Below the pieces are notes generated by a model, which worked only from the letters and a program-made list of their open reading frames with translations, was not told the origin of the DNA and did not search any database. From Candidatus Zixiibacteriota bacterium (lineage in GTDB: Bacteria; Zixibacteria; MSB-5A5; DSPP01), in the NCBI GenBank assembly GCA_022614805.1, contig JAKEHY010000024.1, forward strand, positions 1,844 through 65,843: a stretch of 64,000 bases of DNA. Direction: 5' to 3'. Below, in pieces: positions 13,370 through 17,311 of this stretch (the first letter of the stretch is position 1; each line of letters begins with the position of its first letter). Made by a program: the position numbers and the translations under genes.

Positions 13370-14710
13370 TCAGGCAATCGTTTTAGCCTCCAAAAGCTCG
13401 TTCCAGCGGGTGGTGCAGCGCGGGGAACGGCGGCTCGATTTCATCCGCCAGCTTTGCAGCAGGCCGGCGGCGGCAAAACGCAGGGCGCCGGAGCCAAGCC
13501 GGGCGTTTACTTCGTCCAGTGCCTGCATCAGTTTTCCAGCGCTCCCGCGGTTTTTGCCGTCAAAAATGTCGGTTTGCACTTCTTCCGTAGGAACCAACCC
13601 GGAAAACACAACCCCCGCTTTTTTGAACCGGCCGTCCGCAAAAAAGATTTTTTCGGCTTCCCGCAGGGCATACCGTATCAGCTCCGGCGTGCTGTCGGTG
13701 GCCACCGGCAACTCGACGGTCGAGGAATGCGTTCGGGCCTGTTCGCTGTGGGGGCGGGTTATGCAAAAGACCGTCAGATGCTTTGCGGAAAGCCGGTCTT
13801 CGCGCAACGTTTCGGCCGCCTGGCTGGTGAATTCCGCCACCGCCTCCTTCAGTTCATTCAGTTTTTCGACGGCCCGGCCGAAGGAGCGGGAGCAGAGGAC
13901 ACTTTTGCGGGGGGAGCGAACCATTTCCAGAGGCAGACAGGAGATGCCGCGCAGTTCAAGGAGAATGCGCTGCCCGACTATCCCCATCCGCTTCAAAATC
14001 CATTGGTCATCCGCTTGCCGAAGCTTGTGGGCGGTCTCTATCCCCCAGCTTTTCAGCCGCCTTTCGCCGCTGGGGCCGATGCCCCAGATTTCTCCCACCT
14101 CTATTTGGGCCAGCCGTTCCTCCGGGTCGGGAAGGGCCGACCAATCCATCACCCCTTTCAGTTCGGGTCGCTTTTTGGCCTGTTTATTGGCCAGCTTGGC
14201 CAAAGTTTTGGTGGGGGCGATGCCAATCGATATCGGAATGCCGGTCCACTTTTTGACCGTGGCGACGATTTGGCGGGCGTAGTCGGAAAGGCCGGCCCGC
14301 TCAAAGCCGGAAAGGTTCAAAAAGACTTCGTCAATCGAATAGATTTCCCGTTCCGGCGTGAATTGCGCCAGCGTATGGATGACCCGCCGGGACATATCGC
14401 CGTAAAGGGTAAAATTGGCGGAGTAGACCCGGACGTTCGCTTGTTCAATCAAATCCCGCACCTCAAAAAACGGGACGGCCATTTTGATGCCCAGCGCTTT
14501 GGCCTCGTTGGAGCGGGAGATGATGCAGCCGTCGTTGTTGGAAAGGACAACGACCGGCACTCCCTCCAGGTTGGGATTAAAAACCCGCTCGCAGGAGACG
14601 TAGAAGTTGTTGCAGTCAACCAGGGCGAAGATGGTTTTGTTTGAAGCCACATCCGAAACCGGCTGCCCGCCACAGGCCGGTTTTTCCCGGTCACAAAGTA
14701 TGGATGACAT
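13370..14710 (-). CDS. umuC: Y-family error-prone DNA polymerase (UmuC / DNA polymerase V catalytic subunit)
   Basis: 446 aa. N-terminal IFALVDCNNFYVSCERVFNP..VVVLSNNDGCII is the Y-family (UmuC/DinB) palm signature. Overlaps umuD by 20 nt. Confidence 0.88.
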   Translation of the reverse strand: MSSILCDREKPACGGQPVSDVASNKTIFALVDCNNFYVSCERVFNPNLEGVPVVVLSNNDGCIISRSNEAKALGIKMAVPFFEVRDLIEQANVRVYSANFTLYGDMSRRVIHTLAQFTPEREIYSIDEVFLNLSGFERAGLSDYARQIVATVKKWTGIPISIGIAPTKTLAKLANKQAKKRPELKGVMDWSALPDPEERLAQIEVGEIWGIGPSGERRLKSWGIETAHKLRQADDQWILKRMGIVGQRILLELRGISCLPLEMVRSPRKSVLCSRSFGRAVEKLNELKEAVAEFTSQAAETLREDRLSAKHLTVFCITRPHSEQARTHSSTVELPVATDSTPELIRYALREAEKIFFADGRFKKAGVVFSGLVPTEEVQTDIFDGKNRGSAGKLMQALDEVNARLGSGALRFAAAGLLQSWRMKSSRRSPRCTTRWNELLEAKTIA

Positions 14711-15107
14711 AGGTTACCACGCCCCAGATTTCTATGCTCTCCGGTTTGCCTGACGGGCCGTTCTGCGAAAGAAGGGAGGGAGTCCTTTTTTTCAGCCGGT
14801 CAAAGTAGCCGACGACAAACTCCCCTTCCACCACGGCGATGACCACCCGGCCGGGGGCGGGCTCGAGCGAGCGGTCAACAATGAGCAGGTCGCCGTGGTG
14901 GATGCCGGCTTCCAACAGGGCATCCCCTTTGGCCCACAGGAAAAAAGTGGCGGCCGGGTGTTTTACCAGATGGGCGTTCAGGTTCAAAACCTTTTCGGCA
15001 AACGGCTCGGCGGGGGAGGGAAAGCCGACCGCGGCCGGAGTCTGTTCGGAGGCGTCGGCGCCGGCCCGGACGGGAGGCTGGTTGAACATTGGAATGTAGG
15101 GCGCCAT
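14691..15107 (-). CDS. umuD: UmuD-like S24 peptidase-fold protein with catalytic Ser replaced by Ala
   Basis: 138 aa. Aligns to E. coli UmuD through the GFPSPA..HP.ATFF..GD..GI..GDLLIVD core. Motif is AKGDALLEAGI where UmuD has ASGDSMIDGGI. Cleavage-site position reads VG rather than CG. Confidence 0.8.
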   Translation of the reverse strand: MAPYIPMFNQPPVRAGADASEQTPAAVGFPSPAEPFAEKVLNLNAHLVKHPAATFFLWAKGDALLEAGIHHGDLLIVDRSLEPAPGRVVIAVVEGEFVVGYFDRLKKRTPSLLSQNGPSGKPESIEIWGVVTYVIHTL

Positions 15108-15108
15108 T

Positions 15109-16410
15109 TTAGCGAAAAGCCCCCGGAGAAACGGCCCCGGCGATGGGGTAACGGGAAATCAAAGAAAGCTGCTCTCCCGGTTTGCGCTGGCGAAAATAGG
15201 TCTCCCGCCTTTCTTCCCGCGTCTGGCCGTAAAAGATGCCGCCTATGGTTACGAATTCCTTGGTCTGACGTACTCGCACCCCCAGTTTGGCTAAATCTTC
15301 GGGCTTGAAAATCGTCCCCTCCCGGCGGGCGGTTAAAATCCGCCGGGCGGAGACCGGGCCGACGCCGGGGACGGTCAGAAGCTGTTCATACGAGGCGGTT
15401 TTGATTTCGATGGGAAAGAACTCCGGGTGTAAAATCGCCCGGTGGAGCTTGGGGTCCAACTCCAAAGACAAATTGCCGTCTTTTTCGAGCGGGATTTCGT
15501 TCACGGAAAGCTTGTAGATTCGCAACAAGTGCTCTGCCTGATAGAGCCGGTAGCCGCGCGTGAAAGGGGTGGGTGCCAGATTCTCAAACGGCGTGTCGGA
15601 CATCGGCGCAAAAGTGGAAAAATGGGCGTGGTGCAAAAAACCGTCCCCCTCCAATTGGGAGACGAGGGAGAGGATTTCTTTATCCCTCTCCCTCCCCGGG
15701 CCGACCATAAACTGGGTGGTCACGCCGGCGGGGACCAGCTTTTTTCCTTCCAGTTTTCCGGCCTTCCAGAGTTCCCCTGCCTTTTGAATGGAGGGGAGAA
15801 TGACTTTGGAAAGCGACTTTTCCGGCGCGATTTCGGAAAGGGCGGCGTCCGAAGGGGCTTCGCAGTTTAAGGAGATGCGCGAGGCCAGCCGGGCGGCCTG
15901 GACAATCTGCTCCGGCTCGGCCCCGGGGAGGATTTTTAAATGAATGTAGCCGCTGAAGCGGTAGCGCTTGCGCAAAATTTCCAACGTGGCCAAAAGCTTG
16001 TCCATCATCGAAACGGGTGAACCGGGGATGCCGGAGGTCAAAAACAGTCCGTCGGTGTATCCCTTCTTATGGGCGGCGTAAAAAACGGAGGCCAGTTCTT
16101 CCGGCTGAAAGATGGTCCGGCGCAACTTGCGGCCGCAACGGGTGGCGCAATAGCGGCATTTCAAGCTGCAGGCGTTGGTCTGCATCACCCGCATCAGGTT
16201 AAAAGTTCGCCCGTGCGCCCCCGCCAATTGCATAATTCCGGGCAGGGCGGCTTTCTTGGCCGTTTTTGGCTCGACCCCCGTGAGCCCATTTTGGACCTCT
16301 TGGGTTGCCTGGCGGATGGGGATTGTCTGCCTCGGACGGCCCTCCGCATCCGAAGGGTTTATGGTATCGCCAAGGATATTAAGCTTATCAAGAAGACCTA
16401 ATCTGCGCAT
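15109..16410 (-). CDS. radical SAM protein of the putative DNA modification/repair class (rSAM core plus C-terminal helix-hairpin-helix)
   Basis: 433 aa. CX3CX2C cluster motif CSLKCRYC. C-terminal HhH LTVPGVGPVSARRIL. Stop is 1 nt from the umuD start, so same operon. Confidence 0.75.
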   Translation of the reverse strand: MRRLGLLDKLNILGDTINPSDAEGRPRQTIPIRQATQEVQNGLTGVEPKTAKKAALPGIMQLAGAHGRTFNLMRVMQTNACSLKCRYCATRCGRKLRRTIFQPEELASVFYAAHKKGYTDGLFLTSGIPGSPVSMMDKLLATLEILRKRYRFSGYIHLKILPGAEPEQIVQAARLASRISLNCEAPSDAALSEIAPEKSLSKVILPSIQKAGELWKAGKLEGKKLVPAGVTTQFMVGPGRERDKEILSLVSQLEGDGFLHHAHFSTFAPMSDTPFENLAPTPFTRGYRLYQAEHLLRIYKLSVNEIPLEKDGNLSLELDPKLHRAILHPEFFPIEIKTASYEQLLTVPGVGPVSARRILTARREGTIFKPEDLAKLGVRVRQTKEFVTIGGIFYGQTREERRETYFRQRKPGEQLSLISRYPIAGAVSPGAFR

Positions 16411-16433
16411 GTAACCTGTTGTTCTTCAATCTG

Positions 16434-16480
16434 TTTTATCATATTATTCACACTCATATAATACTATTTTATCATATTAT
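16434..16480. promoter_or_regulatory. pair of 14-bp direct repeats TTTTATCATATTAT in the divergent control region
   Basis: Copies at 16434-16447 and 16467-16480, inside the AT-rich 16411-16633 region between the rSAM-umuDC operon and the HTH-S24 repressor gene. Confidence 0.45.
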
Positions 16481-16633
16481 ACGTTTATGTAGTATAAAAG
16501 TCAAGTATTTTTTTAGAATTTTTTATTAGCTATTGCTTTTTTATATACGTATAATATATTGTGGGAAGTCAAATGGGATACCCCGACAGGTCGGGGCTAC
16601 CCTTGAAGATGGAACTAAAGAGAGGTGAGAAAA

Positions 16634-17311
16634 ATGGAGATAGGTGAAAGAATCAAAGCGCTACGGACGGCCAAGGGGCTGACGCTTTATCAGCTGGCCC
16701 GGCGGACCGGTCTGCAGTACACCGCCTTGAAAAAAATCGAAGAAGGGCAAACCGACCCGCGGGCGGATACGGTGGTGAAAATCGCCAGGGGAATTGGGGT
16801 GGAACCCTCCCGATTTTTCACGGATGATTCGGCCGTGCGGCCGCCGGTGGTTTTGAACATCGTCCCGCCGGAGCGGGGGGCGCGCAGCTTCCAGCCGAAG
16901 TTTTTGGCTACCCTGCCCCTTTTTGCGGACGCCGCTTCGCTCGGAGGTGGCCGCGAAATCAACGAGCTGGATATCGAGTCATTTTTGGTGGTGCCCAAAG
17001 ACCAGCTCCCCAACGAGGAGAACTGCTATTGCATCAAGGTGGTCGGCGATTCGATGACGCCGGTTTTTTCCTCCGGCGATATTGTGGCCATTGATTTTTC
17101 CCAGAAGGACCCGGCCCTCTTGGAAGGGGCCTATGTCGCCTGCCGGCTGGGGGAGGCCGAAGTGACGGTCAAACAGCTAAAAAACAAGCCGAACCACTTC
17201 CACTTGAAAGCGGTCAACCCGGATTGGGAAGACGCCAACGGCCCGCTTTTGGCGCCGAAAAAAGACGGCGTCATCCTCGGCAAAGTGGTGTGGCAGTGGA
17301 GGAAGTTTTAA
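16634..17311 (+). CDS. LexA-like repressor: XRE-type HTH plus S24 autopeptidase domain
   Basis: RBS AGAGGTGAG precedes ATG 16634 (ORF track lists a GTG at 16625). N-terminal HTH IKALRTAKGLTLYQLARRTGL. C-terminal S24 domain with intact Ser (VVGDSMTPV) and Lys (VKQLK). Confidence 0.8.
   Translation: MEIGERIKALRTAKGLTLYQLARRTGLQYTALKKIEEGQTDPRADTVVKIARGIGVEPSRFFTDDSAVRPPVVLNIVPPERGARSFQPKFLATLPLFADAASLGGGREINELDIESFLVVPKDQLPNEENCYCIKVVGDSMTPVFSSGDIVAIDFSQKDPALLEGAYVACRLGEAEVTVKQLKNKPNHFHLKAVNPDWEDANGPLLAPKKDGVILGKVVWQWRKF

Follow-up and report, generated by a model that had tools for sequence, protein, structure and literature searches.

Does a radical-SAM enzyme encoded at the head of an umuDC operon act together with the translesion polymerase, or do the two only share a promoter? 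The question arises from a four-gene cassette in a 64-kb stretch of DNA (referred to here as the window) from an uncultured member of the Zixibacteria, which is represented by metagenome-assembled genomes only; we know of no cultured members of this phylum. An earlier note on this DNA had read the cassette as a self-regulated, damage-inducible module and proposed a direct link between radical-SAM chemistry and Pol V. The explanation that we favor, with somewhat better than even confidence, is a lineage-restricted SOS-like module of one Zixibacteria clade that combines two co-regulated, mechanistically independent functions.

Layout of the cassette and its divergent repressor

The minus strand carries genes for a UmuC-type Y-family DNA polymerase (13370..14710, 446 amino acids), a UmuD-like Pol V accessory subunit (14691..15107, 138 amino acids) and, as the first gene of the operon, a radical-SAM enzyme with a helix-hairpin-helix (HhH) domain (15109..16410, 433 amino acids). 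Divergent from them on the plus strand lies a gene for a predicted XRE-type HTH plus S24 self-cleaving repressor (16634..17311, 225 amino acids). The matches that assign these proteins to their families lie well outside chance. One base separates the radical-SAM stop codon (TAA, 15109-15111) from the umuD ATG at 15107, and the umuD and umuC frames share 20 nt (14691-14710), as they do in the relative L165. The 223-bp gap between operon and repressor gene is poor in GC (30% over its full length, 18% in the core) compared with the genes (57 to 61%). These features confirm the tightly coupled, divergent arrangement described in the earlier note, as do the positions of PolX (20616-22346) and Mfd (58246-61659) its remark that the window holds further repair genes. 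An intrinsic-terminator-like hairpin (13133..13162, minus strand; 12-bp stem with 8 GC pairs, then a T run) ∼200 nt downstream of umuC probably marks the end of the operon. In the orthologues, the umuD ATG follows the radical-SAM stop by 1 to 4 nt. This clade-wide translational coupling is tighter than co-regulation alone would need, which is a point against independence of the two functions.

The repressor consists of an HTH_3 domain (Pfam, residues 10-62) and a Peptidase_S24 domain (residues 104-222). Its start is most likely the ATG at 16634, which is preceded by a Shine-Dalgarno-like GAGGTGA and gives 225 amino acids as in the orthologues; a GTG at 16625 was considered and disfavored. Against the LexA model TIGR00498 the protein reaches 42 bits (cutoff, 111), with only the S24 part matching, and its N-terminal domain is an XRE HTH_3 rather than the LexA winged helix. 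The catalytic S140 (G[DE]SM) and K180 (TVKQL) are invariant in 8/8 aligned family members, down to 56% identity, and so is a motif A-S-L-G-x-G-R. None of the other three cassette proteins is as conserved as the repressor (86 to 88% identity). A word-index-limited search of 5.8 billion proteins at an E value of ≤1e-8 found 14 clusters of this family. One homologue (59% identity) is encoded divergently from an imuA/imuB-like cassette made up of an ImuA-like gene and a Y-family gene; this setting supports the view that the repressor functions in the manner of LexA.

Similar arrangements are known from non-LexA S24 repressors such as HdiR of Streptococcaceae, the Bacteroidetes COG2932 proteins, UmuDAb, and lambda CI, which share the XRE/CI-type HTH, the S24 domain, and the Ser-Lys dyad. 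Repressors of this kind adjoin and control translesion polymerase genes, with umuDC under their control in Streptococcaceae and Bacteroidetes (PMC8565304); such control is presumed here. The Bacteroidetes LexA-like family is reported to be restricted to that phylum and to use the operators GGA-N5-TCC or CTAA-N5-TTAG (PMC8565304). The present repressors appear to form a separate, very small family, with an invariant A-S-L-G in place of the Ala-Gly of the known repressors. The locus would extend the known non-LexA S24 repressors by a small new family whose members lie next to umuDC-type as well as imuAB-type cassettes.

The linker of the repressor has no canonical Ala-Gly scissile bond, the aligned position being an invariant D-[AS]-A-S-L-G-x-G-R, and this is a point against a self-cleaving repressor. 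It also fits a different view of the locus, in which the HTH-S24 gene encodes an ordinary XRE regulator, of local or phage origin, that senses no damage, and the cassette is a mobile-element or prophage remnant or a defense island. The HTH is indeed of the phage CI/XRE type, and its best PADLOC and NCBIfam matches are CapH, RstR, and controller proteins. However, no integrase, transposase, or phage genes adjoin the cassette, which lies between housekeeping genes of equal GC content that are syntenic in relatives. A PADLOC search for defense systems gave generic HTH matches for the regulator and no specific match for any of the four proteins. Together with the invariant dyad and the association of the repressor family with two types of translesion cassette, this makes such an origin improbable.

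Two back-to-back σ70-like promoters can be read in the AT-rich control region (16411..16633). That of the operon (minus strand; TTGACT 16504-16499, 17 nt, TATAAT 16481-16476) has 11/12 matches, and that of the repressor (plus strand) reads TTAGCT 16526-16531, 18 nt, TATAAT 16550-16555, with TTGACT/TTGACA-17-TATAAT at the same position in relatives. Among the candidate operators are two 17-nt direct repeats, CTGTTTTATCATATTAT and CTATTTTATCATATTAT (16431..16480, 33 bp apart), which overlap the −10 box of the operon promoter as well as the early part of the transcript. Their 14-nt core occurs nowhere else in the 64-kb window, where 0.15 matches would be expected. A second candidate is the imperfect palindrome ATATGATA-N6-TATTATAT (16456..16477), ∼67 nt upstream of the radical-SAM ATG. 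An imperfect palindrome, each time of different sequence, lies 67 to 78 nt upstream of the radical-SAM start in 7/7 orthologous regions. Given that the DNA is AT-rich and palindromes are common at 18% GC, it lacks statistical support, and none of the repeats or palindromes considered in this region reached such support. An inverted ATATTATACG pair was rejected as an operator, as it corresponds to the two −10 boxes. The 5′ leader of the repressor mRNA contains a GC-rich hairpin, CCCCGA-cagg-TCGGGG (16581..16596, plus strand); each orthologue has a hairpin of differing sequence at this position.

The radical-SAM enzyme and its polymerase neighbors

The first operon product matches Pfam Radical_SAM and HHH/HHH_3, and the HhH domain indicates that it may bind DNA. 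Against TIGR03916 it scores 284.6 bits (E value, 1.4e-84), below the cutoff of 343.5, in an alignment that spans profile positions 34-386 of 415. The class suggested in the earlier note holds as to full-length homology, and the unrelated radical-SAM family that would have refuted the note was not what the search returned. Ten further members of the same group all score 250 to 285 bits, suggesting that the protein is TIGR03916-like and belongs to a related group below the family cutoff. Its CX3CX2C cluster motif is present, with C81, C85, and C88 invariant in 112 sequences.

TIGR03916 proteins form operons with TIGR03915 (COG4277-COG1573) and are described as always adjacent to this DUF4130 partner, which is often UDG-fused. 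The enzyme studied here shares the full-length homology, the CX3CX2C motif, the C-terminal HhH, and the setting under a damage-type repressor (PMC4951493, PMC8565304); it differs in its score below the cutoff, in the missing partner, and in its place in an umuDC operon. Its direct neighbors are umuD and the HTH-S24 gene, and the scanned large ORFs of the window include no DUF4130/UDG partner. Neither was one present in the annotated contexts examined for members of the same group. The absence emphasized in the earlier note thus stands for the ORFs scanned, and it is not special to this locus.

It would also be conceivable that the enzyme acts on RNA, protein, or a small molecule rather than on damaged DNA and owes its operon position to historical accident. 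We consider this unlikely, because TIGR03916 proteins, to which the enzyme is homologous over its full length, have UDG-fused partners and are found in LexA regulons (PMC4951493, PMC8565304). Moreover, throughout the clade the radical-SAM gene keeps its divergent orientation to the S24 repressor gene, including where umuDC has been lost. A comparable case is SplB/COG1533, a radical-SAM "DNA repair photolyase" that also falls under SOS-type control in LexA regulons; in three relatives (L001, L087, and L085), the same repressor gene has an SPL-family radical-SAM gene as its neighbor. Both TIGR03916/COG4277 operons and splB recur in LexA regulons (PMC4951493, PMC8565304).

The second gene was called umuD in the earlier note, a name that holds by its Peptidase_S24 domain, its score against NF007621 (111 bits; cutoff, 110), and its position directly upstream of and overlapping umuC. 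The loss of its catalytic dyad had been missed. Aligned to E. coli UmuD (PDB 8gmt and 1umu), the protein has A in place of S60, G in place of K97, and V-G instead of C24-G25 at the cleavage site, and the dyad is missing in all clade orthologues; without Ser and Lys, self-cleavage is not expected. We take the upstream ATG at 15107 to be the real start, because the N-terminal peptide M-x-x-Y-[IV]-P-M-F-N-Q-P-P is kept in the orthologues through synonymous codon changes. UmuC contains IMS, IMS_C, and DUF4113 (residues 393-441) domains. It reaches 386.5 bits against NF002955, below the cutoff of 431, yet this is by far its best match (Pol IV models, ≤166 bits). Its catalytic residues, the D in VDCNNFY and the DE in SIDEVF, line up with their counterparts in a DNA polymerase IV structure (PDB 7yll), so that UmuC is, by prediction, catalytically intact.

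The pair thus resembles E. coli umuDC (Pol V) in gene order with overlapping frames, in the UmuC domains and catalytic D and DE, in the UmuD fold and GFPSPA motif, and probably in transcriptional control by an S24 repressor. It differs in the UmuC score below the NF002955 cutoff, in the radical-SAM gene preceding umuD, and in a UmuD without Ser60 and Lys97 and with V-G at the cleavage site, which would prevent RecA* from promoting the conversion to UmuD′. An S60A exchange in the E. coli protein blocks UmuD cleavage and strongly reduces UV mutagenesis (PMC3901139).

The cassette in related genomes

Five more genomes or contigs carry the cassette in syntenic arrangement. It is kept in L001/L005, L086, L087, and L165, with radical-SAM identities of 72 to 89% and dS values of 0.8 to 1.2; in L085, the contig ends directly after the radical-SAM gene. 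This synteny, the repressor Ser and Lys, and the homologue flanking imuA/imuB support the self-regulated, damage-inducible layout proposed earlier. We regard the module as real and conserved, and the operon as probably inducible by DNA damage; co-regulation of the radical-SAM gene with umuDC is likely.

Whether the enzyme also acts with Pol V at the lesion is a separate matter. By converting or marking a blocking lesion, it could enable bypass by UmuC; by modifying UmuD or UmuC, it could instead provide an activation step in place of the lost UmuD self-cleavage. Such direct coupling would agree with the radical-SAM gene being first in the operon, with its close junction to umuD throughout the clade, with a gene order conserved at dS values of up to ∼1.2, with a UmuD incapable of self-activation, with the DNA binding indicated by the HhH domain, and with the lack of a DUF4130/UDG partner among the ORFs scanned. 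In L170, a member of the clade, however, the repressor and the radical-SAM gene (91% identity) are kept, whereas the segment corresponding to 13343-15107 of the window, with umuDC, is replaced by 190 bp. Purifying selection on the radical-SAM gene is equal there, with a dN/dS of 0.076 versus 0.078 in the umuDC-carrying L086. In addition, no match to UmuC, UmuD, or S24 lies within 8 kb in 156 loci of the same radical-SAM group (≤52% identity), so that the link to umuDC, as far as this neighborhood survey goes, was found only in one narrow Zixibacteria-like clade. Dyad-less UmuD/UmuC pairs also occur elsewhere without a radical-SAM or S24 gene nearby, so dyad loss does not require this enzyme, and two systematic surveys of Y-family polymerase partners make no mention of radical SAM. 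These observations weaken the link drawn in the earlier note, and direct coupling now seems unlikely. The specific proposal that the enzyme is a working partner of Pol V, whose radical chemistry on the lesion or the polymerase complex licenses translesion synthesis in place of RecA*-mediated UmuD cleavage, is in our view quite improbable; if true, it would connect radical-SAM enzymology with mutagenic DNA synthesis in a previously unknown way. As the relatives show, enzyme and polymerase rather appear to be co-regulated neighbors than obligate partners.

A proposed two-function module and its implications

In the favored reading of two independent functions, the CI/HdiR-type repressor would most likely bind the AT-rich region between the back-to-back promoters and repress both itself and the operon. 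Its invariant Ser and Lys suggest that, upon DNA damage, RecA-ssDNA filaments would trigger its self-cleavage and thereby derepress the operon. One product would be a DNA-binding radical-SAM enzyme, whose 5′-deoxyadenosyl-radical chemistry presumably targets a nucleotide that is damaged or modified. The other would be a Pol V-type translesion polymerase composed of an active UmuC and the dyad-less UmuD-like subunit. Both would share a promoter and work independently. Because the protease dyad is lost, no E. coli-style activation of UmuD to UmuD′ would take place, and Pol V may be controlled by transcription alone. Repressor and radical-SAM gene would then form the stable core, with umuDC as an attached, dispensable passenger of the transcription unit.

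The locus is a novel variant of already known kinds of modules. TIGR03916-type radical-SAM/HhH enzymes are widespread and recur in SOS regulons, and a partner-free relative under a two-promoter switch and a dedicated repressor offers a compact system for testing the effect of this enzyme on DNA. By sequence, UmuD-like subunits without the protease dyad appear to be common, suggesting that many bacteria may regulate Pol V without the E. coli-type cleavage checkpoint.

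Gene layout and family of the radical-SAM protein

The ORF list and the Pfam and NCBIfam matches agree on the four genes that an earlier note had described as a damage-response cassette. Three of them are on the minus strand: a radical-SAM gene (15109-16410; 433 amino acids; Radical_SAM and HHH/HHH_3 in Pfam; TIGR03916 with an E value of 1.4e-84), a umuD-like gene (14691-15107; 138 amino acids; Peptidase_S24 in Pfam; NF007621 at 111 bits, cutoff 110), and umuC (13370-14710; 446 amino acids; IMS, IMS_C, and DUF4113 in Pfam; best match NF002955, 386.5 bits). The plus strand carries the HTH-S24 regulator gene (HTH_3 and Peptidase_S24 in Pfam), in an open reading frame from GTG 16625 to 17311. 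The tight coupling is likewise present as described, with one base between the radical-SAM stop codon and the umuD ATG and a 20-nt overlap of the umuD and umuC reading frames, and the spacer to the divergent regulator is indeed AT rich (30% GC, and 18% in its core, versus 57 to 61% in the genes). Genes for PolX and Mfd, also mentioned in the note, are both found in the window, which belongs to a metagenome-assembled genome of candidate division Zixibacteria.

The probable start of the regulator is ATG 16634 rather than GTG 16625, as it follows the Shine-Dalgarno-like GAGGTGA and yields a length of 225 amino acids that matches the orthologues. For umuD, the upstream ATG is the true start, since its first six residues are kept in orthologues through synonymous codon changes. 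The GenBank product for the radical-SAM gene has only 374 amino acids, starting at Met60; because the N-terminal 24 residues of the omitted segment (residues 1 to 59; 16234-16410) are conserved across the family, the 433-amino-acid form is more likely to be correct. A variable linker after this N terminus is probably disordered (pLDDT of <50 for residues 18 to 51).

The assignment of the radical-SAM protein to TIGR03916, a family typically paired with a TIGR03915/DUF4130 partner that is often fused to a UDG, holds only in part. Its homology covers nearly the whole profile (positions 34 to 386 of 415), but the score of 284.6 bits lies below the curated cutoff of 343.5, and 10 further homologues, sampled throughout the list of matches, score between 250 and 285 bits. 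By these subcutoff scores, the protein belongs to a distinct TIGR03916-related group of ∼405-amino-acid “predicted DNA-binding HhH proteins” and stands outside the family defined by the TIGR03915/DUF4130-UDG pairing.

Distribution of the umuDC association

Homologues of the radical-SAM protein form a tight clade with 73 to 100% identity and, after a gap, a large set with at most ∼52%. From scans of 185,579 species genomes and JGI metagenomes we collected 160 loci, and all ORFs within 8 kb of each were searched by phmmer with the UmuC, UmuD, and HTH-S24 proteins of the window. Matches were confined to the tight clade: L001/L005, L086, and L087 show the full layout of a repressor divergent from radical-SAM-umuD-umuC, while in L085 the contig ends directly after the radical-SAM gene. 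The 156 other loci, mostly from Rokubacteria/Methylomirabilota, have no umuC, umuD, or HTH-S24 gene within 8 kb. The full cassette is also present in the clade member L165 (identity to the window of 72% for radical SAM, 65% for UmuD, 77% for UmuC, and 88% for the repressor). The neighborhood survey thus restricts the pairing to a narrow clade, and the umuDC link is specific to one lineage.

Spurious long ORFs in the high-GC Rokubacteria DNA overwhelmed a clustering of neighboring ORFs at the 156 loci, and annotated contexts were used instead. In these, the neighbors of the distant group members are unrelated genes, and both DUF4130 and UDG are absent, so that the missing partner is a trait of the whole radical-SAM group. 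The absence of the usual partner that the earlier note pointed out is nothing special to the locus. In L088 (5470-7866), a 50%-identical homologue lies immediately downstream of a radical-SAM gene of the AmmeMemoRadiSam type; an intein with a LAGLIDADG domain interrupts the latter gene.

A mobile-element origin was rejected because of the GC content, the flanking genes, and the synteny, and so was a reading as a defense system, for which PADLOC gave only generic HTH matches to the regulator and nothing specific.

The clade member L170 (GCA_973511115.1) shares the divergent arrangement and the adjoining housekeeping genes of the window, with a full-length radical-SAM gene (91% identical to that of the window) and a repressor of 86% identity. 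Nucleotide similarity to the window extends from 20253 to 15107, where it breaks off exactly at the umuD start, and restarts at 13343, ∼27 nt beyond the umuC stop; 190 unrelated bases take the place of umuD-umuC (window 13343-15107, compared with L170 4232-4561). As the deeper-branching L001, L087, and L165 all carry umuDC, its absence from L170 is most simply explained by loss. The radical-SAM dN/dS ratio between the window and L170 (0.076) matches that between the window and the umuDC-bearing L086 (0.078), so that the enzyme and its repressor are still under selection without Pol V.

These observations bear on the proposal that radical-SAM chemistry is linked directly to Pol V translesion synthesis, which the operon structure had prompted. 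We regard such a mechanistic link as quite unlikely, since the association is narrowly distributed, a relative without umuDC exists, and the radical-SAM gene and UmuD/UmuC each occur without the other.

The left flank of L170 is rearranged, with window 2641-7399 inverted. Window 6001-7094 is low in GC (38% versus 55% for the window), carries a gene for an Mrr-type restriction endonuclease (6225-7094), and is probably a small acquired island; the corresponding L170 interval is ∼700 bp shorter, has no match to it, and lacks the Mrr gene.

The repressor family and the control region

The repressor is the most conserved of the module's proteins, and its family is very small (12 clusters at 83 to 92% identity and two at 56 to 59%). 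Ser140, Lys180, and a linker motif, A-S-L-G-x-G-R, are invariant across all aligned members, none of which has a canonical Ala-Gly site. In L168 (1-1983), the gene for a 59%-identical homologue diverges from an ImuA-like gene, behind which lies a Y-family (ImuB-like) gene. The arrangement resembles an imuA-imuB cassette controlled by the same family of repressors; the ImuA-like gene matches NF033429 at 38.7 bits, under its 150-bit cutoff. An SPL-family (PF20903) radical-SAM gene adjoins the repressor gene in L001 (2908-5053), L087 (4392-5378), and L085 (1626-2699), and the window has no SPL homologue. Two small unannotated genes (210 and 77 amino acids) lie between the two genes in L001, on the same strand. 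The invariant Ser/Lys pair, the imuA/imuB-like and SPL neighbors, and the high conservation fit a LexA-like, damage-responsive regulator, for which HdiR and noncanonical LexA proteins of Bacteroidetes are precedents (PMC8565304).

The control region contains two back-to-back σ70-like promoters, one for the operon (16504-16476, minus strand; TTGACT-17-TATAAT) and one for the repressor (16526-16555, plus strand; TTAGCT-18-TATAAT; TTGACT/TTGACA-17-TATAAT in relatives). The inverted repeat ATATTATACG...CGTATAATAT was rejected as an operator because it consists of the two divergent −10 boxes. Two candidate operators were considered, neither with statistical support in DNA this AT rich: a pair of 17-nt direct repeats 33 bp apart (16431-16480), unique within the window and overlying the operon −10 box and early transcribed region, and an imperfect palindrome (16456-16477), for which palindrome enumeration found counterparts of varying sequence in each of the seven orthologous regions, equally far from the radical-SAM start. 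The 5′ leader of the repressor mRNA contains a GC-rich hairpin (16581-16596) immediately ahead of the ribosome-binding site. Each orthologue has a hairpin of its own sequence at this position (e.g., ACCCCA/TGGGGT and AGCC/GGCT), a pattern better explained by an RNA structure than by an operator. RNAalifold analysis of this hairpin was weakened by an insertion that misaligned the window sequence, and Rfam gave no match above threshold over 13000-17500.

The UmuD-like subunit and implications

When the UmuD-like protein is aligned with E. coli UmuD structures, Ser60 corresponds to Ala and Lys97 to Gly, and the Cys24-Gly25 cleavage site reads Val-Gly. No UmuD orthologue of the clade has the dyad; the Ser is replaced by A or T and the Lys by G or Q. 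UmuC keeps its catalytic D and DE residues. In E. coli, an S60A substitution prevents cleavage and greatly lowers UV mutagenesis (PMC3901139); together with the replaced dyad, this suggests that the classic RecA*-dependent maturation step is not available to this Pol V. Dyad loss does not depend on the radical-SAM gene, as similar dyad-less UmuD/UmuC pairs occur in L166 and L167 without any radical-SAM or S24 gene.

A UmuD search of 1.84 billion representatives returned no close representative of the clade and served only to gauge the frequency of dyad loss. About one-quarter of the S24 domains in 150 diverse UmuD-like representatives lack Ser, Lys, or both, and 29 of the 120 closest homologues lack the dyad (P0121-P0144 and P0272-P0421 being among the sequences concerned), with Ala/Arg as the commonest replacement pair. 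Such proteins are common, yet databases label them “autoproteolytic subunit.” The top matches (P0272-P0276, P0279, P0280, and others) are 220 to 290 amino acids long and contain a tandem pair of S24/UmuD-like domains; in several of them the catalytic residues are degenerate.

Operons of TIGR03916/TIGR03915 (COG4277-COG1573) and splB are LexA regulon members in Verrucomicrobia and Bacteroidetes (PMC4951493, PMC8565304), and Aravind et al. tied SplB-like radical-SAM enzymes, DUF4130, and UDG to SOS components (PMC3765255). Translesion polymerases under non-LexA S24 repressors are also already known. Radical SAM is absent from two systematic surveys of Y-family polymerase partners. In contrast to the TIGR03916/TIGR03915 operons, the TIGR03916 relative of the window is partner free and physically fused into a umuDC operon. 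The module itself is genuine and conserved, and on balance we favor the view that it is damage inducible. What is new is the partner-free TIGR03916 relative in a umuDC operon, the dedicated small repressor family, and the combination with a UmuD predicted to be uncleavable.
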